NCBI GenBank assembly: GCA_045617945.1 | Contig: JAZLJS010000101.1 | Coordinates: 11,529 to 75,528, forward strand | Origin: Lachnospiraceae bacterium | GTDB lineage: Bacteria > Bacillota > Clostridia > Lachnospirales > Lachnospiraceae | Length of the DNA stretch: 64,000 bases | Direction of reading: 5' to 3' | In this document: piece after piece, positions 13,502 to 52,705 of the stretch | Layout of the letters: every line of letters starts with the position of its first letter | Numbering within the stretch: the stretch's first letter is position 1 | The notes under the pieces: generated by a model | The model's input: only the letters and a program-made list of their open reading frames with translations | Told to the model about the DNA's origin: nothing | The model's database searches: none | Program-made: the position numbers and the translations under genes

Positions 13502-13627
13502 TGTCTTATACCTCAGCTAATAGATTTTTACGATTTTTCCATATGAACATTATAGCACTAATTACGGCATAGTGATACATTAATGTTGTTTTTGAAGATA
13601 AATGTTATAAAAGTTGGTATTGACAGC

Positions 13628-13748
13628 GTAAGAAACAGTATATGAAGTTTCGTAAGAAACAGTGTTTGAAACAGTATATGAAGTTTCATAAGAAACAGTG
13701 TTTGAAATCGTATATGAAATTGCGTTGGAAATAGTGTATGAAATTGTC
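13628..13748. repeat. Degenerate tandem repeats (12-nt core, 24/36-bp higher order) in the AraC/GH divergent intergenic region
   Basis: GTAAGAAACAG-TGTTTGAAACAG-TATATGAAGTTTC blocks are repeated. The core GAAACAGT(A/G)T(A/T)TGAA occurs about six times. Confidence 0.8.
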
Positions 13749-13770
13749 TTAGATACAGCGGGAGAGCTAT

Positions 13771-14712: not shown

Positions 14713-14744
14713 AGAGAATAGAATAACTCACACGTGCAGATTGA

Positions 14745-14781
14745 AGCTCACAGGATATTTCTTGTGAGCTTTTATTTTTTT
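14745..14781 (+). terminator. Rho-independent terminator
   Basis: AGCTCACAGG-atattt-CTTGTGAGCT followed by TTTATTTTTTT. Confidence 0.7.
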
Positions 14782-14931
14782 CCACAAATTTTTCACACAT
14801 TTTTTTTCTATTCGTGGTATAGTATATTACGTGTGGCCAAGACACAAGATGTTGTGATTAGGATACATATAGCGAGATAGCGATCTCGCATTCCATATTT
14901 CCCCTATATTAATTAAGAATGAGGTTCCCCC

Positions 14932-16746
14932 ATGCAGCAAGATGAGAAAAAATTGAAGAAAAATGAGAAGCTTTCGAAGGATGTGGTTGCAGAAACGGAA
15001 GCATCTTTAGTGGAAAATGCAGTTTCGGAAGACAATGATATTTCGGAAAACGATATTATTTCCGAAAATGATGCAATTCCTGAGAATGATGCAGTTTCGG
15101 AAGATAAAGCAGCTCTCCCGGTTTCGGAGAATAGAAAAGTTCGAAAAGAAAAGAGTGCAGAGCAGATTGAAAAAGATCGGAAGACCAAAGAACGTGAACG
15201 GGGTGTTAAAGCACAGAAACGTGCTTCCAAGTTTGTTCGTTTCCTAAAAAGGAGAAAAGGGCTTCTGATTTTTCTTGTGATAGTCCTTCTACTGTTCCTG
15301 GGGTATAAGTATGTGAATCGTAAATCACAGGAAGCGCTTGCGGCATTGACAACTCCCACGCAGGAAGTGGATTCGGTGCAGAAGATGGACCTTTCAAGTA
15401 GAATTGCGACAACGGGAACCATTATCAGCCCGGAGACCAGAACGCTTACGTCGGTACTGAACGGCAAAACAATCACTGCCGTAAATGCGGAAGTAGGCGA
15501 CAAGGTGTATGCGGGTGATATTCTTGTGACTTTTTCTACGGATGACATTAACCGTTCCATCAAGGAACTCGAGGAAGATATTGTAAAGAGTGCACAGCGC
15601 GATACGATTGACTCGCAGGATTACTCACGTGATTATGTTTATTCATACGGTACGCAGGCATATAATCTGTCCAAGGCAGCGGAGAGAGTGGACCAGGCGT
15701 TGAAGGATCTGTACAATGCGTGCGACGGATACGGCGATGCCAGAAGAGCCAAAGAGAAGTATCTGAATGAGGGCGGCGCCGATCAGATGACAATTGATAA
15801 TCTGGATGCGCAGATTTCGGCAGCATATGTGAAGGAAGAAGCGGCACAGACGGCATATGATTCGGCGGTTGCGGAACAGGCGGAAGCACTTCGTAATGCA
15901 ACCAACAGTATGTCGATGGCAGATTCTACTTTCCAGAAGAATACATTGAACGCGGGATCTTCAACAGAAGATTTGCAGCGTAAACTTGAAGAATATCAGG
16001 ATTCTCTTGCCGATTATGTTGTGACTTCTCCGATAGACGGTATTGTTACGGCAGTAAATGTGCAGGCTGAGAATGGTTTTGCCGGCGGCCAGCTGATGAC
16101 GATTCAGAACGTTGATTCATATGTGGTTACAACGGAAATTGATGAATATGATATTCCCGACGTGCAGGTGGGGCAGCAGGTAATTATCAAGACAGATGCG
16201 ACGCGTGATGATGAACTTGCCGGTACGGTATCGTTTGTATCGCCTACGGCAACCGTAGCGCAGGGAAGTAATGCTACTACATATCAGGTAAAGATTGATA
16301 TCGATACGATGGACAATCGTATTAAGCTCGGTATGTCGGCGAAGCTGAATATTATTACGGAACAGCATTTTGGCGTATTGGCGGTTCGCTATGACGCACT
16401 TGGTGAAGATCAGGATGGTAATCCGGTGATTTATATTCGCGATGAAAGCGCTGTTGATGCGACTGCTCCTCAGGCGGACGGACGTGGTGAATCCATTTCT
16501 GTTGTCAGTGTGGACGGACAGCAGGTAGGTGGTAAGAAACCGAAGAAGGATGCGACTGTGGATCCGTTAACACAGAAGATCCCTACCAAAGAGGTTCCGG
16601 TTCGTATCGGTGTAGTTGGTGATTATTATACTGAAGTTATTTCACCGGATATTTACGACGGGATGGAGATTATCGTTCCTGAGTCAGAGAAGACCAAGAG
16701 CCCGCTTGAACAGCTGATGGAGAGCCTTGGCGGCCCGGTTAGGTAA
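14932..16746 (+). CDS. Efflux transporter periplasmic adaptor (HlyD/MacA-like) with a long charged N-terminal extension
   Basis: TM helix LLIFLVIVLLLFLGY. Lipoyl/beta-barrel-type segments (YAGDILVTF, VTSPIDGIVTAVNV, VGQQVIIKTDA). The first 100 or so aa are SE(N/D)D repeats followed by a K/R-rich stretch. Confidence 0.8.
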   Translation: MQQDEKKLKKNEKLSKDVVAETEASLVENAVSEDNDISENDIISENDAIPENDAVSEDKAALPVSENRKVRKEKSAEQIEKDRKTKERERGVKAQKRASKFVRFLKRRKGLLIFLVIVLLLFLGYKYVNRKSQEALAALTTPTQEVDSVQKMDLSSRIATTGTIISPETRTLTSVLNGKTITAVNAEVGDKVYAGDILVTFSTDDINRSIKELEEDIVKSAQRDTIDSQDYSRDYVYSYGTQAYNLSKAAERVDQALKDLYNACDGYGDARRAKEKYLNEGGADQMTIDNLDAQISAAYVKEEAAQTAYDSAVAEQAEALRNATNSMSMADSTFQKNTLNAGSSTEDLQRKLEEYQDSLADYVVTSPIDGIVTAVNVQAENGFAGGQLMTIQNVDSYVVTTEIDEYDIPDVQVGQQVIIKTDATRDDELAGTVSFVSPTATVAQGSNATTYQVKIDIDTMDNRIKLGMSAKLNIITEQHFGVLAVRYDALGEDQDGNPVIYIRDESAVDATAPQADGRGESISVVSVDGQQVGGKKPKKDATVDPLTQKIPTKEVPVRIGVVGDYYTEVISPDIYDGMEIIVPESEKTKSPLEQLMESLGGPVR

Positions 16747-38996: not shown

Positions 38997-39165
38997 CCTC
39001 AAATTAATAACGAAAATATGAATGACGATATTAATGAATAGTAACCAACGTAAAGAAATTGATGTGAAGTGGTGTGCTGAGACAGGTTGCGTTAATTTCT
39101 GAATTAGATTTGAAAAATCCCCCAAAGTTTATTACAATATATGTAGTGTACCTTGGGGGTTTTCT

Positions 39166-41373
39166 ATGGCTATTTTTTTGTGGATGTTAACAGCAATTAC
39201 GGTCTGCCTGGCAGGTATGGAAGTGCTGTATGTATACAAACAGAGTCCGACTCGCGAGTCGAAACTTTTACAGTTGGTGTGCTTTTGTAACCTTATTCAG
39301 GCTACAGGAAACATGGAAGCGGTCATAGGACAGACTTCGGAAGCATGTTATACCGGCTTGATAATCACATATTTCGGCGGATCGCATGTTGCGTTGTTTT
39401 TCCTTCTTCTGATGTGTGAGATTGTTCATGTTAACTTGCCGAAGTGGTTTATAACGCTGTCTACTGCAATTGATGTTATCTTCATCGGACTGGCAGTTTT
39501 CGAGGATAAGCTTCATTTCTATTACAGAAGCATTTCTTACGATACAAGCGGATTGATCAGCTCCCGTACGGTTGATTTTGCGCCGGGGTTCTATGTATAT
39601 CTTGGCTTTCTTGTATCTTATTTTATTGTTATTTTGGCAATTATTATTAAAGCCCGTGCAAGAAACGCGACGGAATTCGCGCGTGTGTTCAAAGCTGTTC
39701 GAGGTTTTATGTTTGCGGCGTTTTTTTCATACGGTGGGTCGCTTGTTTCTACGATATTCAAACTACGGTATGATTTTACGGCAGCAGGTCTTTCCATCGG
39801 TTTGCTGCTCTTGATTTTGCTTGTTTATAAGTATCGTGTATATCCGATGCGTCAGGATGCCGAGGATACAATACTGAATCAGATAAACGATGTGCTCCTT
39901 TCCTATGACAAGGATGGTCACCTTATATATTGCAACAAGCGTGCGCAGGATGTTCTTCATATTGAGACGGAATTTATGTACGGAATGCCGGTGGATGATG
40001 TCAGTGATGATCTGAGCCGGGTATTGATGCTTGCTCCGGAAGAGCAGATTACGCTTGATAATCACATTTATTCCTGTTCATTGTTCAAATTTGATACGGA
40101 AGATGGCGGCACGGGTATTATTCGCTGGCTAAGGGATATTACTTTGGAGCAAAGTCAGGTAAACGAAATGATACGACTGAAGGAGGAAGCTGATCATGCC
40201 AATGAGGCCAAGTCGGTGTTCCTGGCCAGAATGTCGCATGAGATTCGTACACCGATTAATGCCATCATTGGAATGGATGAGTTGATTCTTCGAGAAGCAC
40301 AGGAAGAGTCGATTAAGAACTACGGCGTTAATATTATGAGAGCCGGCAAAACGCTTCTGTCATTAATCAGTGATGTACTTGACTTTTCCAAAATGGAAGC
40401 AGGCAAGATGTCAATTGTTGAAGATGAGTACAGCTTGTCCGCAATGTTGCGTGATTTGTCACTGATGATTCGCATGCGCGCAGAGAAGAAGGGACTTACG
40501 TATCATTTGAACGCACCACAGGATTTGCCGGAGAAACTGTTCGGTGATGAATTGCGAGTTCGACAGATTATTACGAATGTTCTTACAAATGCCGTGAAAT
40601 ATACGCAGAGCGGCAGCATTATGATGAGCGTGGAAGCGCTTCCGACAGGAAGCGACAAGATAGAGATGCTTGTTTCAATAAAGGATACGGGTGTTGGAAT
40701 CAAGGAAGAAGATATACCGAAACTGTTCACGTCATTTGACCGCATTGAAAATGCGGAGACTCATAAGACGGAAGGCAGCGGTCTGGGCCTTAACATTACC
40801 GATAATTTGATTCGGTTAATGGGCGGCCGGATGACGGTTAAGAGTAAATACGGAGAAGGCAGTGAATTTATATTGATTATTCCGCAGCATGTGCATGGTA
40901 CGGAAACGGTTGGCGTAATTAGTGATCAGATCAGTGAATCCGAGATGAACCGTGATAAGAATCGAATTAAGTTCAGGGCTCCCGAAGCGCATATTCTGGT
41001 GGTGGATGATAATCGTGTGAACAGAACATTGTCTAAAGCATTTTTGAAAGGTACCGATATTCTTGTTGACGAAGCGGATTGCGGTCAGAAATGTTTGGAT
41101 ATGATTCGCGACACAGCATATGATTTGATATTGATGGATCACAGAATGCCGGGATTATCCGGTGTTGAGACACTTCAGATGATGCGTATGAATACCGACC
41201 ATAAATGCGTGGGTGTTCCGGTGATTATTATGACGGCCGATGTTGGAGAAGATCGGCAATCGTATTTCTTAAGAATGGGATTTGCGGCATATATCGGTAA
41301 GCCGATGAACGCGGTGGAGTATGAGAATCTTGTCAGAACATATTTGCCGCAGGAGAGGGTTATTTTGTTGTAA
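39166..41373 (+). CDS. Hybrid sensor histidine kinase/response regulator (multi-TM plus PAS-like sensor)
   Basis: H-box MSHEIRTPINAIIGM, N-box NVLTNAVKYT, G-boxes KDTGVGI and GSGLGLNI. REC (ILVVDDNRVN, LILMDHRMPGLSG, YIGKP). Confidence 0.9.
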   Translation: MAIFLWMLTAITVCLAGMEVLYVYKQSPTRESKLLQLVCFCNLIQATGNMEAVIGQTSEACYTGLIITYFGGSHVALFFLLLMCEIVHVNLPKWFITLSTAIDVIFIGLAVFEDKLHFYYRSISYDTSGLISSRTVDFAPGFYVYLGFLVSYFIVILAIIIKARARNATEFARVFKAVRGFMFAAFFSYGGSLVSTIFKLRYDFTAAGLSIGLLLLILLVYKYRVYPMRQDAEDTILNQINDVLLSYDKDGHLIYCNKRAQDVLHIETEFMYGMPVDDVSDDLSRVLMLAPEEQITLDNHIYSCSLFKFDTEDGGTGIIRWLRDITLEQSQVNEMIRLKEEADHANEAKSVFLARMSHEIRTPINAIIGMDELILREAQEESIKNYGVNIMRAGKTLLSLISDVLDFSKMEAGKMSIVEDEYSLSAMLRDLSLMIRMRAEKKGLTYHLNAPQDLPEKLFGDELRVRQIITNVLTNAVKYTQSGSIMMSVEALPTGSDKIEMLVSIKDTGVGIKEEDIPKLFTSFDRIENAETHKTEGSGLGLNITDNLIRLMGGRMTVKSKYGEGSEFILIIPQHVHGTETVGVISDQISESEMNRDKNRIKFRAPEAHILVVDDNRVNRTLSKAFLKGTDILVDEADCGQKCLDMIRDTAYDLILMDHRMPGLSGVETLQMMRMNTDHKCVGVPVIIMTADVGEDRQSYFLRMGFAAYIGKPMNAVEYENLVRTYLPQERVILL

Positions 41374-41399
41374 TTCATTACAATACGGGGGTAGTGTTA

Positions 41400-43304
41400 A
41401 TGAAGAATAAGAAAATTGCAGTATTTGCCAATGGATGGAGTGGAGAATTTCTTAAATATGTATTGGAAGGTATCCGCAAAGAAGCTGCCAAGGACGGAGT
41501 GGATATTTTCGTATATATGACATATATATTCTTCATGGATGATCCTTTGCAGAGCAAATGCCAGTTGAATATATTCCATCTTCCGAATCCGAAAGATTAT
41601 GACGGTGCAATCATGTTGACCAATACATTTAATCTTTCTGATGAGCAGGAACGAATCCGCGCCCTTTTTCAACGAGCGGGTGTTCCGATGATTTCTACCG
41701 AAGTGAAGGTGCCTGGTATGGCATACATGGGAACCGGTAATTATCAGGGCGTTTATGAACTGGCCGAGCATTTGATTACTGTCCATAATGTGAAGAACGT
41801 CGTATACTTAAGCGGGATTAAAGGAAATGAGGAATGTGCAATCCGTAAGCGTGCGCTTTGCGATGCGTTGAAGGCACACGGACTTACGTTGACGGATACG
41901 TTACAGGGCGATTTTGGATTCTATACGGGTTATATACTGACCAAGCAGTGGGTTCAAAGCGGTAAGGAGATTCCCGATGCATTTGTTTGTGCAAACGATC
42001 ACTCGGCGATCGGGGTTTCTGCAGCGTTGTATGAAATGGGAATCAAGGTTCCCGAACAGGTTATTGTTACGGGATTTGACCGTATTACGGAAGCGATTTC
42101 TTCATTCCCGATGATTGCTTCGGTAACGAGACGATGGGATAAATTCGGCGAGAATGTATACCATGAATTATGCAAGCAGATGGAGAATCTGAATCCGGAA
42201 TTTGAGCTGGTAACTGATTCGGAGTTTGTTCCGGCAGAAAGCTGTGGCTGTAAACCGTCTGAGGAAGCAATTCATGCCCGTTATGAAATTGTACGAAATG
42301 CATATTCTTCGAGAATTTATTCGGAGAGATTGGATATTTTCTTTCAGAGCATGCGTCTGGAACTTGCTAAGGTTGAATCCAAAGAGGAGTTTCATGAAGT
42401 GGCTACGAAACTGTTTGGCGCGAATGACTTTCTCGGAGATGATTTTGCGATTTGCGTGGAACCGGCATTTTTCGAGTTGGACGACGAGAGCTATCCTCAG
42501 CGAATTCGAGGTTACAGCAATGTGATGGATGTGTTGTATGAGAAACGCGCCGGAAAAGCAATGCCTCTTCGTCAGTTCCATACCAAGGAGATTATACCGA
42601 ATTATCATAAAGCTCCGAATGACTCCAATATTTATTTCCTCGTTCCGTTGAACAATCTGCAATATATTATCGGATATGTGGTTGTTAAGAACGACGCGGG
42701 AATGATTTATGACCAGACTTTCCGTAACTGGATTATGAATATGAACACGACGTTTATTAACGTTCGACAGTATATTTTTGCGCAGGAGAGCAATCGTAAG
42801 TTGAAAGAGATTTACATGATGGATTTCCTGTCAAATATGTATAATCGTACGGGTTGCGAGAAGGTGATTTTCCAGCATGTAGAGGATGAGAAGGCTGAGG
42901 GTCGAAGCGTTCTCCTGTTATTTGCGGATATTAACTGCATGAAGAAGATTAATGATGAACATGGCCATTTAATGGGAGATCTCGCAATAAAGATTACAGC
43001 TGATGCAATGCGAAAGTCATTGCCGGACGGTTGGTTATTGGGGCGCTACGGTGGTGATGAATTTGTGGCTGTCGGACCGTGCCTGGATGAGGAAACAACT
43101 ATTGCACAGAAAAATGCCCTGGATGTTTCCATGAAGCGATATATTGAGAAACTATCATTAAGTTTTCCGTTGTCGGCAAGCGTCGGATTCTCTGTTGCGA
43201 GACCGGATGAAGAAAAGAGCATTGAAGAATATATCAGTGAAGCAGATGAGTCCATGTATGATGAGAAACAGAAAGCCCATCAGCAAATGGGATTTTCGGA
43301 ATAG
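41400..43304 (+). CDS. Diguanylate cyclase with N-terminal LacI/PBP-type (sugar-binding-like) domain
   Basis: N-terminal KKIAVFANGWSGEF... periplasmic-binding-fold pattern without a signal peptide. C-terminal GGDEF domain with an intact RYGGDEF. Confidence 0.8.
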   Translation: MKNKKIAVFANGWSGEFLKYVLEGIRKEAAKDGVDIFVYMTYIFFMDDPLQSKCQLNIFHLPNPKDYDGAIMLTNTFNLSDEQERIRALFQRAGVPMISTEVKVPGMAYMGTGNYQGVYELAEHLITVHNVKNVVYLSGIKGNEECAIRKRALCDALKAHGLTLTDTLQGDFGFYTGYILTKQWVQSGKEIPDAFVCANDHSAIGVSAALYEMGIKVPEQVIVTGFDRITEAISSFPMIASVTRRWDKFGENVYHELCKQMENLNPEFELVTDSEFVPAESCGCKPSEEAIHARYEIVRNAYSSRIYSERLDIFFQSMRLELAKVESKEEFHEVATKLFGANDFLGDDFAICVEPAFFELDDESYPQRIRGYSNVMDVLYEKRAGKAMPLRQFHTKEIIPNYHKAPNDSNIYFLVPLNNLQYIIGYVVVKNDAGMIYDQTFRNWIMNMNTTFINVRQYIFAQESNRKLKEIYMMDFLSNMYNRTGCEKVIFQHVEDEKAEGRSVLLLFADINCMKKINDEHGHLMGDLAIKITADAMRKSLPDGWLLGRYGGDEFVAVGPCLDEETTIAQKNALDVSMKRYIEKLSLSFPLSASVGFSVARPDEEKSIEEYISEADESMYDEKQKAHQQMGFSE

Positions 43305-43315
43305 GATGTGATGTA

Positions 43316-43723
43316 ATGCTTGAATTTGATGAATTTACCCAGAAGGATTTGCAAACGGTAACATCTGCCATCGAAGAATATATGGAAAGCATGGGGGCTC
43401 CGATGCGGGCGACTTCACAGGTGATGATTGCATTGGATGAAATACTTAGTAATATTGTGAAGTTTGCATATCCGGGAACTGTTGGATACGCGTCGGTTGA
43501 TTATGAACCATTGCCCGATTCGAATGGTATTCGAATTGTGTTTACCGATTATGGCGTGCCGTATAATCCGCTTTTGCAGGAAGATCCTGATATTACTCTT
43601 TCGGCTCGGGAACGCGAAGCTGGTGGATTGGGAATATTCATGGTTAAGAAAACCATGAGCGATATAACATATAGGTATGAGGATAATAAAAATATTCTTA
43701 CTATAATAAAGTTATTTGCATAA
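43316..43723 (+). CDS. SpoIIAB/RsbW-like anti-sigma-type serine kinase (HATPase_c_2)
   Basis: 135 aa. N-box-like ALDEILSNIVKFAY, G1-like TDYGVPYNP, G2-like GGLGIFMVKK. Confidence 0.75.
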   Translation: MLEFDEFTQKDLQTVTSAIEEYMESMGAPMRATSQVMIALDEILSNIVKFAYPGTVGYASVDYEPLPDSNGIRIVFTDYGVPYNPLLQEDPDITLSAREREAGGLGIFMVKKTMSDITYRYEDNKNILTIIKLFA

Positions 43724-43735
43724 AGGAGAGGAAAA

Positions 43736-44035
43736 ATGAACATTACTCAGAACAAGGAAGAAACCAAGTTAACAATTGCATTGGAAGGTCGTTTGGATAC
43801 GACAACAGCGCCTTCACTTGAGGAAGTGACGAGTTCTGCACTTGTCGATGTAAAGGAATTGATTTTTGATTTTTCGCAGCTTGAGTACATTTCTTCTGCA
43901 GGACTTCGTGTTATTCTTGCCGCTCAGAAGACAATGAACAAACAGGGCGAGATGAAAGTTGTAAAGGCAAACGAGAACATTAAGGAAATCTTCGATATTA
44001 CGGGATTTTCGGATATTATTACATTGGAAGACTGA
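43736..44035 (+). CDS. STAS-domain anti-sigma-factor antagonist (SpoIIAA/RsbV-like)
   Basis: 99 aa. LEGRLDTTTAP... and LEYISSAGLRVIL with a candidate phosphorylatable Ser. Confidence 0.8.
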   Translation: MNITQNKEETKLTIALEGRLDTTTAPSLEEVTSSALVDVKELIFDFSQLEYISSAGLRVILAAQKTMNKQGEMKVVKANENIKEIFDITGFSDIITLED

Positions 44036-44051
44036 TTGAGAGAACAGTTAC

Positions 44052-46034
44052 GTGAGTAAGAAAAGAGTTCGAAAGATAAAACGGTTGAGAAGACGGCACG
44101 TTTGGCCGCATTTATTTCTTTCACTGCTTGTGTTGATTGTTTTTAACGGTGCTTTCGTTGCGTCGGCATATCTCTTTTTTGAGAATACTTTGGAGAATAA
44201 GGTTATTTCGGGATATCAACGTATCGCGATGATCGCCGATGTTTTGAATCGTCAAAACAGTGATGAGTACATTACACAGAACCTTTTCAGCATCCGGTCA
44301 ATTATTCCGGAGATTGCATCGCTATGCGTGGTTGATGCGAATAATAAGTGTACACAGCATATCGGAACACAATTTCCGAACCTTAATGAGGCCCAGAATT
44401 TGTTGGCGTCCGGGCAGGAAATGACTTTGATTCCGTTAACGGAGGAATTGTTTATTGTTACAGACTCCGGTTCGCTGGTGATTAATCCTGCAACCGTGCA
44501 AGAGAATGTTCGTGATGTCCATGTACAGTTTGAGCGTCTTTCTTATCAGGAGGAATCGGCAACATGGAAGGCCGAAAGCTGTTGGTTTATTGTTCCTTAC
44601 GGGGAAAAGGGCGAGAAATTATGCGTTTTGTGTGATGTCGCCGTTACAAATTATGAGATAAACAGCATTGCGGTGGCATCCTTGATTGCCCTTACCCTGG
44701 CCGGATTGCTATGTCTGCATCAGATATGGGAAGTTGTAAAGATTCTGAATGATCGCCGCAAGATTCGTAAGCTTGTATACACCGATTTTTCGACCGGGGC
44801 GATGAACAGAATCTTTTTCCGTGATACGGGAGATAAACTGCTTCGGAGAAGACTCTACAGACAATATGCTGTTGTGCAGCTGCAGATGGAGAAGTACAGA
44901 AATTATTGCATGTACTATTCCGAGGAAAAGGGCGAGGATTTGCTGGAGAGAATCCAGGAATACCTTGTGAAGTTTATTAATCACAGAGAGTGCGTTGCGC
45001 ATATTGAGGCGGCTGATTTTGCACTTCTTTTGATGTACACGAATGAGACGGAATTGAATCAGCGGATAAACGGCCTGATGCAGTCCTTAAAGGGTCTGAT
45101 ACCGACCAATAAGGATTGCTTTTTGGCGGGTGTATCTGCCTGCGGTCACGAAAATGATGTAATGCATTATTATATAGAAGCAGGTGTTGCACGCCATTCC
45201 ATCAGGGATGATTCCGAAACCCGGATCTTGTGGTTTAATGAAGACCTGAAGGCTACACAGATATGGGAACGCAAGGTGGAAGACGATATGGAAGGCGCGT
45301 TATCAAGACACGAATTCCAATTGTTCATTCAGCCGAAGTACAGTGCCAAGGAAGAGAAAATTGCAGGCGGCGAGGCACTTATTCGTTGGATGCATCCGAC
45401 AGAAGGTTTTGTGTCACCCGGCCGTTTTATTCCTATATTTGAGAATAACGGATTTATTACCAAAATAGATGATTATATGATTAGCGCACTTGCTGCGGCA
45501 CAGGCCAAATGGTTGTCGGAAGGCAAGCCGATTGTCCCGATTTCCGTAAATGTATCGCGCGTTCATTTTATGCGCGATGATCTTGCGGAGCATATCTGTT
45601 CGCTTGTGGATGCATATAATGTTCCACATGAATATATTGAACTGGAACTTACCGAGAGCGCATTCTTCGATGACAAAGATGTTTTGTTACGTATTGTAAA
45701 GAAAATGCAATCGTACGGCTTCCACGTATCGATGGATGACTTTGGCTCGGGATATTCATCTCTGAATTCATTAAAGGAATTGCCGCTGAATGTAATCAAA
45801 CTCGATGCCGAATTCTTCAGAGGTTCGGATGATTTGATTGAGAGATCCAAAGTCATTGTGCGCAATACGATTGAACTGGCGAAGGAACTGGGAATGACGA
45901 TTGTCGCCGAGGGCGTTGAATACCGTGAGCAGGTTGACTTTTTGGCATCCATTGATTGCGATTTGATTCAAGGTTTCTATTTTGACAAGCCGATGCCGGC
46001 ACAGGAATTTGCCAAGAAAGCGTTCGGAGAATAA
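44052..46034 (+). CDS. Membrane-anchored degenerate-GGDEF / EAL c-di-GMP phosphodiesterase
   Basis: GTG start. Two TM helices flank an extracytoplasmic-looking domain. The GGDEF position reads IEAADF. EAL motifs are intact (EALIRW, ELTES, DDFGSGYSSL, EGVE, QGF). Confidence 0.85.
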   Translation: MSKKRVRKIKRLRRRHVWPHLFLSLLVLIVFNGAFVASAYLFFENTLENKVISGYQRIAMIADVLNRQNSDEYITQNLFSIRSIIPEIASLCVVDANNKCTQHIGTQFPNLNEAQNLLASGQEMTLIPLTEELFIVTDSGSLVINPATVQENVRDVHVQFERLSYQEESATWKAESCWFIVPYGEKGEKLCVLCDVAVTNYEINSIAVASLIALTLAGLLCLHQIWEVVKILNDRRKIRKLVYTDFSTGAMNRIFFRDTGDKLLRRRLYRQYAVVQLQMEKYRNYCMYYSEEKGEDLLERIQEYLVKFINHRECVAHIEAADFALLLMYTNETELNQRINGLMQSLKGLIPTNKDCFLAGVSACGHENDVMHYYIEAGVARHSIRDDSETRILWFNEDLKATQIWERKVEDDMEGALSRHEFQLFIQPKYSAKEEKIAGGEALIRWMHPTEGFVSPGRFIPIFENNGFITKIDDYMISALAAAQAKWLSEGKPIVPISVNVSRVHFMRDDLAEHICSLVDAYNVPHEYIELELTESAFFDDKDVLLRIVKKMQSYGFHVSMDDFGSGYSSLNSLKELPLNVIKLDAEFFRGSDDLIERSKVIVRNTIELAKELGMTIVAEGVEYREQVDFLASIDCDLIQGFYFDKPMPAQEFAKKAFGE

Positions 46035-46168
46035 GGATTATATGTGCAAAAAGTACATAAAAGTAAAATTTGTGCGTATAAATGTAAAAGAATTGTATTC
46101 TCATTGATATGGGGAATGATTAAAATGACACTAGTATTTGTGCAAGTTGTTGGATGAAGGAAGATAAA

Positions 46169-46726
46169 ATGAAGAAATTTAGTCTTTATTCGATAATAGG
46201 CGCGATCCTCATGATGGGCACACTGCTGGTGGGCTGCGGATCACAGAAAGTGGAATCTCCCGTAGTTGGTAAGTGGGCATACATCCACGATGAGACGACA
46301 GAAATTTTGAATGTTTCCGCGAACGGAACGGCTGTATATAAAGGTGATAAGTACAAAGTTGCCGATGAAAACGGATTTCTGATTTTATCCGGAACGGGCA
46401 AAGATAAGCTGAAACTTCGGTACGAGATATCCGGTGAAGATTTATATTTATACGAACCGGCCTTCTATACATTCGAAGGCAGCGAGGATCCGGAAGGCTT
46501 AATTGGAAAGTGGTCCAATCCCACAACCAAATGGAGCTTTGAGTTCTATGATGACGGTACATTCCGTGAGGACGGATATTTCCCCGGTTATTATATGCTC
46601 GATGAAGCAACATCATCTTTTAAGCTGGCATACGAAGATCATTTTGAGGATACGACCTGTTATTACAATATAGAAGGCAGAGAACTTACAGTCGAATATC
46701 CTTGGCGCATGATTCGAATGAAATAG
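46169..46726 (+). CDS. Small lipoprotein of unknown function
   Basis: Signal peptide with lipobox LLVGCGS. I chose the ATG at 46169, after GAAGGA. Confidence 0.65.
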   Translation: MKKFSLYSIIGAILMMGTLLVGCGSQKVESPVVGKWAYIHDETTEILNVSANGTAVYKGDKYKVADENGFLILSGTGKDKLKLRYEISGEDLYLYEPAFYTFEGSEDPEGLIGKWSNPTTKWSFEFYDDGTFREDGYFPGYYMLDEATSSFKLAYEDHFEDTTCYYNIEGRELTVEYPWRMIRMK

Positions 46727-46822
46727 GTGCCGAATGAATAAGTGTGATTGCGCAAAGCGCTTCACGGGGCAATGCAAGGGCGTTGCTCAAATATATTTTT
46801 TTATTTTCATAGGAGGGATAAT

Positions 46823-48178
46823 ATGAAAAAGAAAGTACTTGCAACTCTTATGGCAGTTTGCATGGTAGCATCTTTGGCAGCATGTGGCGAAGCAGCAGCT
46901 CCCGCACCTGCAGCTGAGGCTCCCGCTGCTGTAGAAGAAACAAAAGAAGAAGCTCCCGCAGCTGAAGAAGCTCCCGCAGCTGAAGAAGAAGTAGTAGAAG
47001 AAGCTGCTGCTGAATCTTTCGATCTTACAATGTGGTGTATCGCTACTGAGTCTGACTCTAACCGTCATTCTTATGAAGCAGCTATCGCTGATGTAACAGC
47101 TAACCATCCTGAAATCAACTTCTCATGGGAAGCAATCGAAAACGAAGCTTACAAGACAAAGATTAAAGCAGCTGTTGCAGCTGATGATATGCCGGACATC
47201 TTCTTTACATGGTCTTGCGCATTCCTTGGTGATTTCGTTGACGCTGGTCGTGTTTACTGCCTCGATGATGAATATGCTAACTGGGCATCTTCTCTTCCTG
47301 AAGTTATGACAGGTAACACAACTTACAACGGAAGCCATTATGGTGTTCCCCTTACAATGAACATCGTTGGTTTGTTCGCTAACATGGATCTTCTTGGCCA
47401 GGTTGGTTATGATGAAGTTCCCGGAACATACGAAGAGTTCATCGCTTGCTGTGACGCTCTTAAGGCTGCTGACATTATGCCTTTCGGTTGTGCTGGTAAG
47501 GAAACATGGTGTGTAACTGAGTATCTTGAGTCTGTTATTGAGAAATCCGTTGGTGCTGATGCCCTTAACGATATCTTCCTTGGCAGAGCTACATGGGCTA
47601 ACCCCGATGTTGCAGCTGCTGTTGATACATTCCAGGGTATGGTAAACGATGGTTACTTTGATCCTTCAGGTGCTGCTCTTTCTAACGACGAAGTTAAGCA
47701 GAACTTCATCGATGGCAAGTATGCATTCTACATGAACGGAACATGGAACTGTGCAGACTTCGCTAATGCTGGTATCAATTGTAAGGTTGCTGAATTCCCT
47801 GTAATCAATGCTGATGCAGCTTCTTTGGGACAGCTTATCGGTGGACCTTCAGATACATTGGCAGTTGCAGCTTCCTCTGAGCATGCAGCAGAAGCAGCAG
47901 CATTCACATTCGAACTTGGTAAGGAAATCTGCCACTATGGTTACCTTGATGGTTGTGGTCTTCCCGCTTGGACACCTGACTACGACACAAGCTCTATCAA
48001 TCCTTTGACAAATGCAGTTTCTGATATCTGTGCTAACGCTAAGAGCTATGTTCTCTTTGGTGATACAGCTCAGAACGCTGACGATGCAGCTACATACCTT
48101 GATTATGTTTCACAGGTTTACACATGCGACATCGACGGTCAGGGCTTTATTGATGGACTTGCTGCTGATATCAGATAA
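46823..48178 (+). CDS. ABC transporter extracellular solute-binding lipoprotein (carbohydrate, family 1)
   Basis: MKKKVLATLMAVCMVASLAACGE lipobox, A/E/P-rich linker, then an SBP fold. ATG at 46823 follows AGGAGGG. Confidence 0.85.
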   Translation: MKKKVLATLMAVCMVASLAACGEAAAPAPAAEAPAAVEETKEEAPAAEEAPAAEEEVVEEAAAESFDLTMWCIATESDSNRHSYEAAIADVTANHPEINFSWEAIENEAYKTKIKAAVAADDMPDIFFTWSCAFLGDFVDAGRVYCLDDEYANWASSLPEVMTGNTTYNGSHYGVPLTMNIVGLFANMDLLGQVGYDEVPGTYEEFIACCDALKAADIMPFGCAGKETWCVTEYLESVIEKSVGADALNDIFLGRATWANPDVAAAVDTFQGMVNDGYFDPSGAALSNDEVKQNFIDGKYAFYMNGTWNCADFANAGINCKVAEFPVINADAASLGQLIGGPSDTLAVAASSEHAAEAAAFTFELGKEICHYGYLDGCGLPAWTPDYDTSSINPLTNAVSDICANAKSYVLFGDTAQNADDAATYLDYVSQVYTCDIDGQGFIDGLAADIR

Positions 48179-48217
48179 TTTCACCTAATATTAGTTGCAA
48201 TTTTAATTGACTAATTT

Positions 48218-48267
48218 GGTGGCTTCCCGATTCTCCGTTGGGAGTCGGGCGGCCACCATTTTTTTTT
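48218..48267 (+). terminator. Strong hairpin plus T9 (terminator/attenuator) between the SBP and permease genes
   Basis: GGTGGC..CCCGA.TCTCC-gtt-GGGAG.TCGGG..GCCACC followed by ATTTTTTTTT. Confidence 0.75.
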
Positions 48268-48280
48268 GGAAGGATCAGTT

Positions 48281-49165
48281 ATGCGTAAAAAGAAATTGAC
48301 CACTGCAAGAGACGTATTCTTATTTTTACTTCCCGCTATTATTTTGTTCGGCGGAATTCTGATCGCGCCTATTGTCATGTCATGCTATTACAGCTTTTTT
48401 GACTGGCATTTGGTTAAGGGTAATCAAGGATTTGTAGGTCTTGAGAACTACAAAGAATTGTTTACCAGTAATTCGATTGCTTTTTCAAAAGCAATAGGTA
48501 ATTCGCTTTTGTTGGCATTCCTTTCGGTTTTCATTCAGTTACCTATCTCTCTTGGATTAGCGCTTTTGCTCGGTAGAAAGATTAAAGGTGAAAGAGTATT
48601 CCTTTCCATTTTCTTCTTACCGGTACTTATTTCAACAGTTGTTATCGGCCAGTTGTGGTTAAAGATCTATAACCCGAACTATGGCCTTTTGAATGTAGCC
48701 TTGGTTGGCTTGGGATTTGACAAATTTACCGACTTCACATGGTTGACGGATAAGACTGCAATATGGGCATGTTTCATTCCGACCTTGTGGCAATATGTCG
48801 GTTATCATATGTTATTGATGTATGCAGGCGTTAAATCGGTTCCGACCGATTATCGTGAAGCTGCTAAGATTGATGGTGCCACTGAGAGCCAGGTTAACAG
48901 ATATATCGTTATTCCTTACATTAAGGGTATCCTTAAGGTTAGCGTTATTTTCGCTGTTACCGGTTCCCTCAAGTCTTACGATATGATTAAGGTTTTGTTA
49001 GGTGGCCAGAAACACAGTCCTGTAGAAGTTCCTACAACACGATTGATCAATCAGATTATTGAACGAAACAAAGTCGGAACAGGTAGTTCTATCGCAGTAA
49101 TGCTGATTATTCTTTGCTTTGCATTTGCGTTGATTATTGGCAGAGTATTTAGGGAGGATGATTAA
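48281..49165 (+). CDS. Carbohydrate ABC transporter permease (MalF/BPD type)
   Basis: Six-TM permease with an EAA-loop-like REAAKIDGATESQ. ATG at 48281 follows GGAAGGA. Confidence 0.85.
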   Translation: MRKKKLTTARDVFLFLLPAIILFGGILIAPIVMSCYYSFFDWHLVKGNQGFVGLENYKELFTSNSIAFSKAIGNSLLLAFLSVFIQLPISLGLALLLGRKIKGERVFLSIFFLPVLISTVVIGQLWLKIYNPNYGLLNVALVGLGFDKFTDFTWLTDKTAIWACFIPTLWQYVGYHMLLMYAGVKSVPTDYREAAKIDGATESQVNRYIVIPYIKGILKVSVIFAVTGSLKSYDMIKVLLGGQKHSPVEVPTTRLINQIIERNKVGTGSSIAVMLIILCFAFALIIGRVFREDD

Positions 49166-49167
49166 CA

Positions 49168-50037
49168 ATGGCGAAAGACAGAAATAGCGAAATGGAATAT
49201 ACCATTAAGAAAACCAGTAAAGCCCGTATTGTTATTACTTACATTTTCCTTGTAATCTGGGCTGTTATTAACTTGTTCCCCATTTACTGGATGTTCACAT
49301 TCTCTTTGAAAGATAATTCCGAAATTTTCGGTGCGAATGTTGCAGGTCTTCCTACAAAATGGTTGTGGAGCAACTATGCTTCTGCTTGGAATACCGGTGA
49401 TATGCCGAGATTCTTTGTAAACAGTATCGTTATTACGATTGTAACGATTGCACTTACATTGATTGCTTCTATTATGGCAACGTATGCAATCACGCGAATC
49501 AACTGGAGAGGCTCCAAACTTACAAACAGTTTCTTTATGTTGGGACTTACAATTCCGGTTCACTCGGCATTGATTCCTATTTATAAGGTACTCATTAAGA
49601 CGAATCTTACCAACAGTTATGCTGCTTTGATTTTGCCGTATGCGGCATTTTCACTTGCAATGGGTATCTTAATTTGTACAGGATTTATGCAGGAGATTCC
49701 CAAAGATATTGATGAAGCTGCTTATATCGATGGTTCCGGTCGATGGGGCACCTTCTTCAAGATTATTGTACCGCTTATGAAACCGGCTGTTGCAACGGTA
49801 TCCATTTATACATTCCTTCAGAGTTGGAATGAATTTATGTTTGCCAGCATCTTCAACACCAAGAGTGTCTATATGACGATTCCTGCCGGTGTTCAGCAGT
49901 TGTTCGGTTCCTATACGACAGACTGGGGCCCGATCGGTGCGGCACTTTCAATTGCAACATTCCCGACGATTTTTGCTTACATCTTCCTGAACAGAAAGAT
50001 TCAGGACAGCTTTATTGCCGGTGCTGTAAAGGGTTGA
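49168..50037 (+). CDS. Carbohydrate ABC transporter permease (MalG type)
   Basis: EAA-loop DEAAYIDGSGRWGTFFKI, six TM helices. Starts 2 nt after the upstream stop. Confidence 0.85.
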   Translation: MAKDRNSEMEYTIKKTSKARIVITYIFLVIWAVINLFPIYWMFTFSLKDNSEIFGANVAGLPTKWLWSNYASAWNTGDMPRFFVNSIVITIVTIALTLIASIMATYAITRINWRGSKLTNSFFMLGLTIPVHSALIPIYKVLIKTNLTNSYAALILPYAAFSLAMGILICTGFMQEIPKDIDEAAYIDGSGRWGTFFKIIVPLMKPAVATVSIYTFLQSWNEFMFASIFNTKSVYMTIPAGVQQLFGSYTTDWGPIGAALSIATFPTIFAYIFLNRKIQDSFIAGAVKG

Positions 50038-50102
50038 TGTATATGTGCTCAATAGTGTGAGTATGTTGAATTTACAAGTGAATAGTTCGATAGAATTATT
50101 GA

Positions 50103-50134
50103 AAACCTGCCCAACTTTTTGGGCGGGTTTTTTT
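50103..50134 (+). terminator. Rho-independent terminator
   Basis: AAACCTGCCC-aacttttt-GGGCGGGTTT running into TTTTTTT. Confidence 0.75.
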
Positions 50135-50144
50135 ATTTGCTATA

Positions 50145-51956
50145 ATGCCGCCAAGGAATTACAATAAACGTATGAATATTTTGCGAATCAGAGATATGAA
50201 ACAGAATATGAAATCAACAGAAAGTCACACGACCATTGTTAAGCTCGTAGGGATAATATTTGGAACTGTGTGTGCTCTTTTTCTGTTGGCATTTATCATC
50301 TCTGCATTTCTTATTAAATCCAGAACAGATATGGATTACGAGATCCGAACAGCAGAAACCAGATTGAATAATATCGGCGCGAATATAGAGGCGACATTGG
50401 ACAATTACAAGGACTTATCACGTCTGGTAATGTTAAACGAGGTCGTCATGAAGTTTTTCCGTGCATTAAGCGTAGATGCCGGAATGATTAACGATGCCCG
50501 CTTTGGCGTTATGGATATTATGAATGTTTCCGATAACCTTGATTCGGTTATTCTTATACGAAATGATTATTCGTATATGAATAATGGACGTAGTATATAC
50601 TTGTTTGATACAGATATGATGCGTACCGATGAGTGGCGCAATATTTATCTCGACAAGAGGGGCGGCGCGGTTGTATCAATTAATGCGAGCAATGCTGTTG
50701 CCAGACAAGACGGGGCTCCGCTTATTACAATCGGTCGAGCGGTATATGATATCAATTCGCAGAAGCAAAAGGGAATGATGCTTCTTGACTTTACAACGGG
50801 AATGCTCGATCGAATTATTAAGTCGCAAGGGAATTCGGATGTTTGTATTATGACTGTGGACGGTAAATATTTGTCGGGCAAGAAGGATCTTGTGCAATAT
50901 TTTTCACCGGAATATGCATCGGAGGATATTGTTCATGAAGAACATGGATACATATTTAAGAAGCGCATGATTAGTGCAATGTCTGTAAAGGATACTCCAT
51001 TTGTAATTATTTGTGAAACAAGTGCGGACAGTGATACTGTACCGAAGGAAATTCTTTTAAGCTTTGTACTGTTAATAGTCGCATTTCTTATTTCCGTTGG
51101 AATAACAGCTCTGTCTGTTATGCGTAATTTTACAAGACCTATATTGAATCTGACCAAAGCGATGGAAGAAACCAAGAAGTCCGGCTGGCTGAAGAAGGTT
51201 GATGTATCGATGCCGAACAATGAAATCGGTATTTTGGCAGACAGTTATAACGGCATGATAGAATATCTGAATGATATGTTTAACCGCCTTTTGGAGAATG
51301 AGAAGGAGATTCAAAAGGCAGAAATGCGTGTCCTGCAGGAACAAATCAAGCCCCATTTTTTGTATAATTCATTGGAGTGCATTAATTGCATGGCGCTGGA
51401 AGAGGGTGCAGAGAGCGTTCAAAAGGCTATAGAGACGCTGGGAAGCTTTTATCGCAATTCATTAAGTAAAGGAAATCGCGAGATTCCCATGAAACGTGAA
51501 ATCAGTATAATAAAGGATTATTTGTATTTGCAGCGACTTCGTTACGGTGACGATTTGGCGGATAGCTATGATGTGGCCGAGGATACAGTTGAGTTGTATG
51601 TTCCGAAGCTCATTTTACAGCCGCTTGTTGAGAATAGTATATATCATGGAATTCGCTTAAAGGGTGAAGAAGGCATTATTCGTGTTTCTTCACGGATTGA
51701 AGACGGAGAATTGCATCTTTATGTGTATGATACCGGTGTGGGAATGAGCGAGGAAGCTATAGCGGAGGCGCTTGCGCCGTCTGTTAAGCCGGATTCACGT
51801 AAGGACGAAGCATTGCACGGTTTCGGATTGCGCGGAACGATTGAACGTGTAAGATATTACAGTAACCGAGAAGATGCTGTACAAATCCGAAGTGAGTTGG
51901 GAGAATATACCGAGATTGAAATGATTTTGCCTATAATGCGAAAGGAGAGCTACTGA
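50145..51956 (+). CDS. Sensor histidine kinase, YesM/LytS-like (HAMP plus His_kinase plus HATPase)
   Basis: Two TM helices around an extracellular domain. HAMP. HFLYNSLECINCMA phosphoacceptor box, VENSIYHG N-box, DTGVGM. The start is uncertain (alternative ATGs at 50172 and 50199). Confidence 0.8.
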   Translation: MPPRNYNKRMNILRIRDMKQNMKSTESHTTIVKLVGIIFGTVCALFLLAFIISAFLIKSRTDMDYEIRTAETRLNNIGANIEATLDNYKDLSRLVMLNEVVMKFFRALSVDAGMINDARFGVMDIMNVSDNLDSVILIRNDYSYMNNGRSIYLFDTDMMRTDEWRNIYLDKRGGAVVSINASNAVARQDGAPLITIGRAVYDINSQKQKGMMLLDFTTGMLDRIIKSQGNSDVCIMTVDGKYLSGKKDLVQYFSPEYASEDIVHEEHGYIFKKRMISAMSVKDTPFVIICETSADSDTVPKEILLSFVLLIVAFLISVGITALSVMRNFTRPILNLTKAMEETKKSGWLKKVDVSMPNNEIGILADSYNGMIEYLNDMFNRLLENEKEIQKAEMRVLQEQIKPHFLYNSLECINCMALEEGAESVQKAIETLGSFYRNSLSKGNREIPMKREISIIKDYLYLQRLRYGDDLADSYDVAEDTVELYVPKLILQPLVENSIYHGIRLKGEEGIIRVSSRIEDGELHLYVYDTGVGMSEEAIAEALAPSVKPDSRKDEALHGFGLRGTIERVRYYSNREDAVQIRSELGEYTEIEMILPIMRKESY

Positions 51957-51958
51957 CC

Positions 51959-52705
51959 ATGCATCGTGTAATGATTATTGATGATGAGCCTACCGCAAGA
52001 AAATTGTTGATTAAGTCGATAGACTGGGCAGCATATGACCTTGAAATTGTGGGTGAGGCAGCAAACGGAATAGAAGCAATCAATGTAATTGATGAGATGA
52101 AGCCGGATTTGGCTTTTGTGGATATTTCGATGCCGTTTATGGATGGAATATCGTTTACGGAGATTGCAACGGAACGTTATCCGAACTTGATTATTATTAT
52201 TCTGACAGCATTTGATGAGTTTGAAAATGCAAGGAAATGTGTTCGACTGCCGGTTTTGGATTATCTTTTGAAACCGATTGTCCGTGAAGAAGTAGAGGAT
52301 GCTCTGCGTGCGGCTAATAAGAAGCTTTCTGCCATGGAAGACAGGAAAGGACGTGAGTCCCGCGATGATGCACCGCCCACAGAGTCCTCTTCCATGGATC
52401 AGATAGAGAAGTATCTGATTAGTAATTATACGGATTCCACGATTAATCTTGCTTCGGTTTCCTTGAAATTTGGGTTTAACCCCAGCTATCTCAGCCGTAA
52501 GTTTAAACAGGATATAGGAAAAAGTTTTGTTGAGTACTTGACGGAAAAGCGTATGGAAAAGGCTGTTGAGCTGGCGGAAAACAATGTGAAAATGTTCTGT
52601 GCGGCCGAGGAAGTCGGTATTCCCGATCCGAATTATTTCGGACGATGTTTCAAGAAATATACCGGGGTCAGTTACTCGGAGTATGCAGCCAAGAATAAAA
52701 AGTGA
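51959..52705 (+). CDS. Response regulator with AraC-type HTH output (YesN-like)
   Basis: REC (VMIIDDE, LAFVDISMPFMDG, LLKP) plus an AraC HTH (GFNPSYLSRKFKQ, IPDPNYFGRCFKKY). Confidence 0.85.
   Translation: MHRVMIIDDEPTARKLLIKSIDWAAYDLEIVGEAANGIEAINVIDEMKPDLAFVDISMPFMDGISFTEIATERYPNLIIIILTAFDEFENARKCVRLPVLDYLLKPIVREEVEDALRAANKKLSAMEDRKGRESRDDAPPTESSSMDQIEKYLISNYTDSTINLASVSLKFGFNPSYLSRKFKQDIGKSFVEYLTEKRMEKAVELAENNVKMFCAAEEVGIPDPNYFGRCFKKYTGVSYSEYAAKNKK

Follow-up and report, generated by a model that had tools for sequence, protein, structure and literature searches.

What does a partner-switching pair control when no sigma factor is encoded beside it? The question is raised by a five-gene cluster within a 64,000-nucleotide stretch of DNA from a Lachnospiraceae bacterium (contig JAZLJS010000101.1 of assembly GCA_045617945.1), to which we refer as the window. 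Here, a kinase of the RsbW/SpoIIAB type and a small STAS protein, both of which look competent for phosphorylation-based switching, are encoded between a predicted cyclase and a predicted phosphodiesterase of cyclic di-GMP (c-di-GMP). This placement between an enzyme that makes and an enzyme that breaks down c-di-GMP suggests that the pair may control these enzymes. An earlier sequence-only reading of the same DNA had proposed such gating in place of sigma-factor control, and had seen in it a Firmicute analogue of the HptB-HsbR-HsbA-HsbD cascade of Pseudomonas aeruginosa.

A tightly packed cluster of five genes

All five open reading frames (ORFs) lie on the forward strand, at window positions 39166-46034 (Table 1). 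The spacers between them measure 20 nucleotides (nt; or 26, if the cyclase starts at its likely ATG at 41400), 11, 12 and 16 nt, and Shine-Dalgarno-like sequences precede the kinase gene and the STAS gene. With gaps of 11-26 nt, the co-directional, tight spacing described in the earlier reading is borne out, as is, by Pfam, every protein architecture that it had assigned. From the end of the cyclase gene to the start of the STAS gene there are 431 nt, occupied by the kinase gene alone.

Table 1 Coordinates of the cluster genes and their candidate promoter in the window, and of related operons at three other loci (TM, transmembrane; PBP, periplasmic binding protein; HK, histidine kinase; REC, receiver domain)
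Feature	Coordinates	Strand	Basis
Candidate promoter, sigma-70-like match TTGAAA-17-TACAAT	39110..39138	+	10/12 consensus matches
7TM-PAS hybrid histidine kinase gene	39166..41373	+	Pfam, NCBIfam, translation, motif/hydropathy script
PBP-GGDEF cyclase gene	41394..43304	+	Pfam, NCBIfam, translation, motif/hydropathy script
RsbW/SpoIIAB-type kinase gene	43316..43723	+	Pfam, translation, family alignment, profile, AlphaFold
STAS gene	43736..44035	+	Pfam, TIGR00377, translation, alignment to SpoIIAA
TM-degenerate GGDEF-EAL phosphodiesterase gene	44052..46034	+	Pfam, NCBIfam, translation, motif/hydropathy script
STAS, 135-aa kinase, PAS-HK-REC-Hpt (unorthodox, ~755 aa) and single-domain REC genes; divergent multi-TM PP2C gene	L106:9216-14778		
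Same STAS/kinase/PAS-HK-REC-Hpt/REC operon; divergent multi-TM PP2C gene	L112:8765-14599		
Same STAS/kinase/PAS-HK-REC-Hpt/REC operon; divergent multi-TM PP2C gene	L125:9584-14640		

A promoter-like match ends 28 nt 5' of the first gene; it is a candidate operon promoter by consensus match, in a region where sigma-70-like sites are no more numerous than in shuffled sequence. No terminator-like hairpin was found at any of the gene junctions, and a search of the leader for riboswitches or other known RNAs returned none, the window yielding only tRNAs. The five genes look like one operon, tightly packed behind a single promoter-like site. How surprising is the company that the pair keeps? The genome carries 23 c-di-GMP genes (22 GGDEF and 10 EAL proteins) in 2.69 Mb. 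If genes were placed at random among ~2,500, a number estimated from the 2.69 Mb, the chance that the pair would have a c-di-GMP gene on each side is ~1e-4; the case to which this figure applies was, however, itself selected after the fact from a very large scan.

The kinase (135 amino acids, aa) matches HATPase_c_2 (PF13581) with 66.1 bits against a gathering cut-off of 27.4. Its Bergerat motifs, namely the N-box with E42/N46, D78xG80 and G103-G-L-G106, align with those of RsbW and SpoIIAB and are invariant in 27 family members (the kinase and 26 homologues). A phmmer search of PDB chains with the kinase sequence alone gave no match at E<=1, and on the RsbW equivalog model it scores 27.6 bits against a cut-off of 145. 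Only a family profile and a fold search placed it among known structures. The profile matches RsbW (6m36, E=2e-7) and SpoIIAB (~2e-5) over nearly the full length. For the AlphaFold model (predicted local distance difference test, pLDDT, 89.1; predicted template modelling score, pTM, 0.82) the best PDB folds are SpoIIAB (1til, 1l0o; template modelling scores of 0.73-0.74), then RsbW (6m37) and UsfX, with a range of 0.68-0.74; the SiaB fold, at 0.62, scores lower than the 0.68-0.74 of SpoIIAB and RsbW. By sequence, it is only remotely related to other RsbW/SpoIIAB-type kinases.

The STAS protein comprises 99 aa in a single domain and scores above the cut-offs of both PF01740 (59.7 versus 22.6 bits) and the TIGR00377 model 'anti-sigma factor antagonist' (71.8 versus 53.45 bits). 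Within its ISSAGL motif (aa 52-57), Ser54 (nt 43895-43897) aligns with the first serine of DSSGL in SpoIIAA (1auz, 1th8) and of DSTGL in RsbV (6m36). In SpoIIAA this residue is Ser58, known to be the site of phosphorylation. With a serine at the conserved position, Ser54 is the predicted phospho-acceptor of the STAS protein. Pfam, motifs, profile, fold and the Ser54 alignment agree on a SpoIIAB/RsbW-like kinase accompanied by a phosphorylatable STAS protein, as the earlier reading had it. The kinase is the sole free member of its family in the genome, and the STAS protein the sole free STAS.

The flanking enzymes are both predicted to be active. The cyclase (636 aa) combines a LacI-type PBP fold at aa 1-300 (Peripla_BP_3/1/4), an unassigned middle region and a GGDEF domain (PF00990, 93.2 bits) with an intact GG[DE]EF motif, read as RYGGDEF at aa 551-557 (GGDEF at aa 553-557, nt 43050-43064). 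No RxxD I-site was seen by eye five residues upstream of this motif. The hydropathy script found no hydrophobic segment in the protein, which is predicted to be cytoplasmic. The phosphodiesterase (660 aa) would be anchored by two transmembrane segments (aa 17-44 and 202-229) around an extracytoplasmic loop of ~160 aa; its GGDEF motif is degenerate (IEAADF, aa 318-323, nt 45003-45020). Its EAL domain (PF00563, 206 bits) retains all of EAL, ExTE, DDFGxG, KxD, EGVE and QG: EALIRW (nt 45372-45389), ELTES, DDFGSG, KLD and EGVE were found by script, and LIQG was read by eye.

The first gene of the cluster encodes a hybrid kinase with the Pfam domain order HisKA_7TM, PAS, HisKA, HATPase_c and Response_reg, with H358 in SHEIRTP and the receiver D659 in DHRMPG; Pfam finds no Hpt domain on it. 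Its family is rich in paralogues, almost all genomes of the genus having 4-18 matches, and none of these genomes holds an orthologue above 36% identity.

A phosphatase on another contig and no SigB-class sigma factor

Are the missing members of a classical switch encoded elsewhere? The assembly (99.5% complete) contains nine sigma-70-family genes: RpoD, a second RpoD-like protein, FliA/WhiG (272.8 bits on TIGR02479), a SigH-like protein and five of the size of extracytoplasmic function (ECF) sigma factors. None of the nine passes a SigB, SigF or SigG model, and no sigma gene lies on the contig of the cluster; neither contig nor genome offers the kinase an adjacent or cognate sigma factor of the SigB/SigF class.

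The genome has two PP2C matches, one being PrpC, the partner of the PASTA kinase PrkC, and the other an RsbU-type protein of 669 aa (TM-dCache-HAMP-PP2C, without a REC domain) encoded on contig C2 just upstream of rpsB. Since congeners encode homologues of this C2 PP2C (45-56% identity over HAMP-PP2C) directly before homologues of the kinase, or as fusions with them, the C2 protein is likely to be the missing partner, and probably the cognate phosphatase of the kinase-STAS pair. The earlier statement that there is neither sigma factor nor PP2C holds for the cluster and its contig; for the genome it does not, as far as the phosphatase is concerned.

The surroundings of the C2 phosphatase deserve mention in their own right. 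Within C2:6017-15476, the PP2C gene (13467-15476) overlaps by 4 nt the gene of a membrane protein (805 aa) that carries an MFS domain at its C-terminus; the gene of a secreted ABC_sub_bind-like protein of 403 aa precedes that gene. At a distance of 4.7 kb upstream, on the same strand, lies the gene for a PBP-degenerate GGDEF-EAL protein of 896 aa, a paralogue of the sensor of the window's cyclase. The genes rpsB and tsf come after the PP2C gene, and in one congener (G014, locus L055) a kinase-then-STAS pair is found 1.6 kb downstream of tsf.

Stand-alone Hpt proteins are represented in the genome by three small-ORF matches, one of them below the Pfam cut-off and all unlinked to the cluster. 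One lies in the window at ~4211-4417 (forward strand), ~35 kb upstream of the cluster and within an open frame of 125 aa (PF01627, 34.6 bits); it may serve the many hybrid kinases of this genome in a phosphorelay.

Relation to known partner switches

Control of cyclases by STAS proteins is already established, with HsbA-HsbD, BgrV-BgrR and SiaC-SiaD as examples. In P. aeruginosa, phosphorylated HsbA (a STAS protein, modified at Ser56) binds the cyclase HsbD (Valentini et al. 2016, PMC5085249). Hybrid kinases act upstream, the output comprises c-di-GMP, biofilm and motility, and FlgM and RpoS are further targets of HsbA and HsbR (PMC5085249). A STAS gene near a cyclase gene and hybrid histidine kinases are what the cluster has in common with this system. 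HsbR, however, unites REC, PP2C and kinase in one protein and receives its input from the Hpt protein HptB, while here the kinase is free and the PP2C is encoded on another contig. There is no such Hpt-fed protein in the cluster, and the genome's sole RsbU-type PP2C has no REC domain; besides the hybrid kinase itself, no protein of the cluster carries a receiver, and the stand-alone Hpt proteins are unlinked. Moreover, HsbD is a membrane cyclase, whereas the cluster's cyclase is predicted to be cytoplasmic, has a LacI-type PBP sensor and is joined by a phosphodiesterase on the other flank. With neither a REC-PP2C-kinase protein nor an Hpt gene in the cluster, the analogy with HptB fails in its details. 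The operons at L106, L112 and L125 (Table 1) are nearer to the HptB system than the window's cluster is.

In the SiaABCD system of the same species, control of the cyclase runs through a PP2C, a kinase and a small phosphoprotein, works by direct binding and involves no sigma factor (Chen et al. 2020/2021, PMC8457831). The components share one operon with the cyclase, and unphosphorylated SiaC activates SiaD, to whose stalk SiaC binds (PMC8457831). SiaC is a DUF1987 protein with a STAS-like fold and a phospho-Thr68, while the switch protein of the cluster is a Pfam STAS; and the PP2C belongs to the cyclase operon in SiaABCD, whereas the operon described here has none. A further proteobacterial example is known to us through a citing paper: in Sinorhizobium meliloti, the STAS protein BgrV controls the cyclase BgrR through its phosphorylation state (Baena et al. 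2019, cited in PMC8457831). Compared on the basis of that citation, BgrSTUWV-BgrR differs by its additional BgrS/T/U/W and by the lack of a phosphodiesterase.

Is there a precedent among Firmicutes? According to a secondary account, the stressosome of Moorella thermoacetica (MtR/MtS/MtT/MtX) includes an RsbT-type kinase that is held by STAS proteins and controls, in place of a sigma cascade, the GGDEF cyclase MtG by way of an RsbU N-terminal docking domain (Quin 2012, cited in PMC12143880). As far as that account goes, the likeness consists in a Firmicute host and a HATPase_c_2 kinase, the cluster's kinase (135 aa) having about the length of RsbT. On the same footing, a stressosome needs both RsbR- and RsbS-type STAS proteins, whereas the cluster has a single small STAS and no RsbU_N domain, and the Moorella PP2C, MtX, is linked to its module, while the C2 PP2C is unlinked to the cluster. 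For the idea of a Firmicute analogue, this stressosome, to the extent that it is described there, already provides a partial precedent.

The Bacillus pairs SpoIIAB-SpoIIAA and RsbW-RsbV resemble the cluster's pair in folds, in motifs, in the adjacency of kinase and STAS genes and in the position of Ser54, which corresponds to Ser58. They differ in that the kinase is only remotely related to theirs and that no SigF/SigB-class sigma factor is adjacent or encoded in the genome. The cluster shares the logic of the systems that act on cyclases but lacks the defining features of each, and is best seen as working in their manner while belonging to none.

A switch acting on c-di-GMP turnover?

Tentatively, and with rather less than even confidence, we favour a sigma-independent phospho-switch, composed of the kinase, the STAS protein with its Ser54 and the unlinked dCache-HAMP-PP2C, that would act on the flanking cyclase, on the phosphodiesterase or on both. 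The kinase would phosphorylate Ser54 of the STAS protein, and the C2 phosphatase would reverse this modification upon sensing an extracellular ligand. In one of its phospho-forms, the STAS protein would then bind the PBP-GGDEF cyclase and/or the membrane-bound EAL phosphodiesterase, and its binding would shift the balance of c-di-GMP synthesis and breakdown in the manner of HsbA-HsbD, BgrV-BgrR and SiaC-SiaD. Alternatively, the kinase freed from the STAS protein could do the regulating, as MtT does on MtG. Additional signals may enter through the enzymes themselves: the cyclase would contribute a cytoplasmic sugar signal via its LacI-type domain, and membrane signals would come in through the phosphodiesterase and the 7TM hybrid kinase. 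In our analysis this proposal draws its strength from operon structure and from precedent, not from comparative evidence.

Is the arrangement conserved?

The kinase family comprises 812 clusters at E<=1e-5 and at least 589 confirmed stretches in representative genomes. We surveyed 100 loci, 80 from representative genomes and 20 from congeners; a putative operon was defined as co-directional genes with gaps of <=150 nt, and the rest of the same loci served as the comparison set. A PP2C gene is present in the kinase operon at 65 of the 100 loci and a STAS gene at 63, compared with four for GGDEF/EAL genes, four for hybrid or ordinary HK genes and one for sigma factors. About a quarter of the family's kinases are fused to membrane sensor PP2Cs, and members also occur in bins labelled Coriobacteriia, Treponema and Bacteroidota. 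The family is a PP2C-kinase-STAS triad without a conserved linked output, and the window's arrangement is a one-off.

Several observations weigh against a switch on c-di-GMP enzymes. Searches anchored on the kinase, the cyclase, the phosphodiesterase and the hybrid kinase returned no second instance of the five-gene order among the relatives searched, and the conservation of this order, which the sequence-only reading had suggested checking, is not upheld. The nearest kinase homologues (56-59% identity) form stand-alone STAS-then-kinase pairs. In 36 congeners the best kinase match reaches 48% identity and is accompanied by a STAS gene and/or a sensor PP2C or is part of a fusion; a GGDEF gene is only rarely found near the congener matches. 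Neither in the family's operons (4/378 genes inside versus 9/688 outside, Fisher p=0.73) nor within 3 kb of the kinase (6 loci in 640 kb versus 7 in 905 kb) are c-di-GMP genes enriched. In favour of the switch, a GGDEF/EAL gene has joined a family PP2C/kinase/STAS operon independently in four other lineages (L094, L113, L137 and L149), a frequency that does not exceed the background. A conserved link to c-di-GMP finds no backing in the comparative data.

The enzymes tell a similar story. Among the cyclase's relatives, a large family in Lachnospiraceae with 416 matches at E<=1e-20 and a best identity of 62%, the closest homologues (55-62% identity, equal length) are single genes in unrelated contexts. 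For the phosphodiesterase, one clear full-length orthologue (50% identity) was found in one congener, with an unrelated upstream neighbour and no adjoining STAS or kinase gene. Compared with such orthologues, which lack STAS/kinase neighbours, neither enzyme has an extra domain, their lengths are alike, and Pfam finds no RsbU_N docking domain on either. Young operons often join unrelated genes, and the switch has further candidate partners in this genome, namely a STAS-ligase fusion on contig C13 and RsbW-like domains fused to transporters. The control of the flanking enzymes is suggested and not shown, because the arrangement was found in no other genome searched. What remains of the earlier suggestion that the pair may gate c-di-GMP enzymes and not a sigma factor is the position of its operon genes between cyclase and phosphodiesterase, the lack of a linked or SigB/F/G-type sigma and the precedents; what it has to do without is a conserved order, an enrichment and an extra docking domain.

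Competing explanations

Could the target be a sigma factor after all? In a classical partner switch, the kinase would be the anti-sigma factor of an unlinked FliA/WhiG, SigH-like, second RpoD-like or ECF sigma, and the STAS protein its antagonist. The neighbours of the kinase in fold and profile are anti-sigma factors (SpoIIAB, RsbW, UsfX), and the group-3 sigma FliA/WhiG, which is present in the genome, would as a target also tie the switch to motility. At L091 an ECF-type sigma gene stands immediately upstream of a family kinase, and the closest STAS-kinase pairs have a divergent ECF sigma operon nearby. We nevertheless regard such a target as distinctly improbable: the SigB/F/G class is missing, and sigma genes, co-operonic at the single locus counted above, are not enriched in the family's operons (1/378 versus 6/688). 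FliA is found in 37/37 genomes of the genus, including seven without a kinase match, and a complete genome of another family (G047) has three kinase matches and no FliA above cut-off. The fusion of many family kinases to sensor PP2Cs, and the spread of the family into bins with different sigma repertoires, argue in the same direction. Just as little credence goes to the view that the switch partner is the adjacent 7TM hybrid kinase or its phosphorelay, with cyclase and phosphodiesterase downstream or in parallel. Three loci from metagenome-assembled genomes (two labelled Clostridia, one binned Muribaculaceae) do unite STAS, kinase, PAS-HK-REC-Hpt and REC genes in one operon (Table 1), at L103 REC and HK genes accompany a PP2C-kinase fusion, the family's operons show a marginal enrichment of REC-domain genes (11/378 versus 9/688, p=0.056), and stand-alone Hpt proteins exist, including the one in the window. 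HK genes, by contrast, are not enriched (4/378 versus 6/688, p=0.50); the hybrid kinase of the cluster has a different input (7TM) and no Hpt domain and comes from a family of many paralogues, and with no receiver on the C2 PP2C the route from HptB to HsbR is absent.

A more serious contender, though still somewhat unlikely in our view, holds that the pair is merely co-expressed with the c-di-GMP genes and has its true partners elsewhere, the output being metabolite activation or export. The phosphorylation state of the free STAS protein and of the STAS domain of the C13 ligase would be determined by the kinase and the C2 PP2C, and two MatE transporters and one SDF transporter would offer the free STAS docking sites in their fused RsbW-like domains. 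Contig C13 indeed encodes a 628-aa protein (183140-185026, reverse strand; L158:5141-7027) in which an N-terminal STAS domain with YISSAGLR, the phospho-site motif that the cluster's STAS protein also has, precedes an AMP-dependent ligase (AMP-binding and AMP-binding_C). Two genes follow on the same strand, one for a 495-aa HD and Tyr-phosphatase-like protein and one for a 434-aa MatE transporter. This STAS-ligase is a possible second substrate of kinase and PP2C. Weak HATPase_c_2-like domains are found at the C-terminus of two MatE proteins (C71 ~46.9-48.7 kb, 602 aa, E=1e-5; C80 ~0.9-2.6 kb, 570 aa, E=4e-3) and at the N-terminus of an SDF symporter (C68 ~6.2-7.8 kb, 550 aa, E=8e-3); all three fall below the Pfam cut-off and two lack the N-box asparagine. 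In relatives, proteins of >=450 aa with a kinase-family domain and without PP2C or STAS occur at 12 of the 100 loci; the two that were checked are MatE transporters with the MatE domain N-terminal. MatE genes are co-operonic at 11 loci, an enrichment that is not significant (p=0.21). Fusions of STAS to an APH-like kinase occur at 15 loci and are enriched (odds ratio 4.5, p=0.003), APH-like genes being the sole extra partner significantly enriched in the family's operons; GH3 adenylating enzymes occur at 3 loci, and ABC exporters also recur. The C13 STAS-ligase and the transporter fusions appear as credible rival targets, and the survey suggests that outputs differ from lineage to lineage. Targets elsewhere would leave unexplained why the pair sits, with 11-16-nt spacing, exactly between cyclase and phosphodiesterase; they are also compatible with a switch on c-di-GMP turnover and do not exclude it.

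What a conserved triad with changing partners could mean

The favoured switch on c-di-GMP turnover can also be seen within a broader picture, in which four statements would have to hold together: that the kinase belongs to a sigma-less family of gut and rumen anaerobes, that its phospho-STAS serves as a general-purpose adaptor for local partners, that it has here been freshly rewired onto c-di-GMP turnover, and that this is the first pair to gate a synthase and a hydrolase reciprocally. Taken jointly, we consider this unlikely. The partners of such an adaptor may include MatE/SDF transporters, APH-like kinases, adenylating enzymes, ABC exporters and hybrid kinases, reached through an RsbW-like or STAS domain or through a local gene.

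To our knowledge, STAS-based control of c-di-GMP has so far been shown only for HsbD, BgrR and SiaD. If the switch acts as proposed, such control would extend from Proteobacteria to gut Firmicutes of the Lachnospiraceae type. The wiring would be new as well, as a free RsbW-type kinase, an unlinked PP2C sensing the extracellular space, a sugar-sensing cytoplasmic cyclase and a membrane phosphodiesterase would be controlled together. Beyond this single case there is a widespread partner-switch family of gut anaerobes without a linked sigma factor; we know of no study of this gut and rumen family and of no output described for it. The genome, which belongs to a member of the Clostridia from gut or rumen, offers a convenient entry for finding one: it has one free kinase, one free STAS and one RsbU-type phosphatase, and therefore genetics would not be confused by redundancy.

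Neighbouring genes and minor observations

Directly downstream of the cluster, on the same strand, a carbohydrate-uptake locus occupies window positions 46154-52705. It encodes a 190-aa lipoprotein, a sugar-type ABC solute-binding protein, two permeases, a YesM-type sensor (dCache-HAMP-His_kinase) and a YesN-type regulator (REC-AraC). This locus might be the source of the ligand that the cytoplasmic PBP-GGDEF protein senses.

An exact 12-nt direct repeat, GGGATTTTCGGA, brackets the kinase-STAS segment at window positions 43289-43300 and 44002-44013. The first copy lies at the 3' end of the cyclase gene (..GFSE*) and the second lies near the 3' end of the STAS gene (..GFSD..); ~0.08 such repeats are expected in 1.6 kb. 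The cyclase lacks a charged C-terminal tail of 10-15 aa that is present in its orthologues. The repeat could be a recombination scar or a product of chance. Synteny between a close cyclase homologue and an acyltransferase of the window, as a separate sign of an insertion, was rejected, as the acyltransferases are not orthologous (37% identity, versus 58% elsewhere). Likewise set aside was the phyletic pattern as a pointer to FliA as a target: FliA is present in all 61 relatives but a few outside the genus, which makes the pattern uninformative.

Some recurrent neighbourhoods of the family are worth recording. Most of the long kinase-domain proteins (>=450 aa) adjoin PP2C, kinase or STAS genes. 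The STAS-APH (PF01636) loci include L050, L056, L078, L099, L104, L129, L142 and L156 among others, and some of these fusions extend to an RsbW-like kinase, as in a 525-aa STAS-APH-HATPase_c_2 protein. At L011, L067, L069 and L071, where the nearest kinase homologues are encoded, an operon on the opposite strand specifies a 70-aa protein, an ECF-type sigma (173 aa) and a 168-aa protein, and Peptidase_C39/ABC exporter genes also lie near the pairs; this neighbourhood may reflect shared synteny within one lineage. Finally, an MscS-type channel of ~458 aa with an extra C-terminal domain is encoded between the STAS and kinase genes at L049:8502-9878 and at seven other loci.

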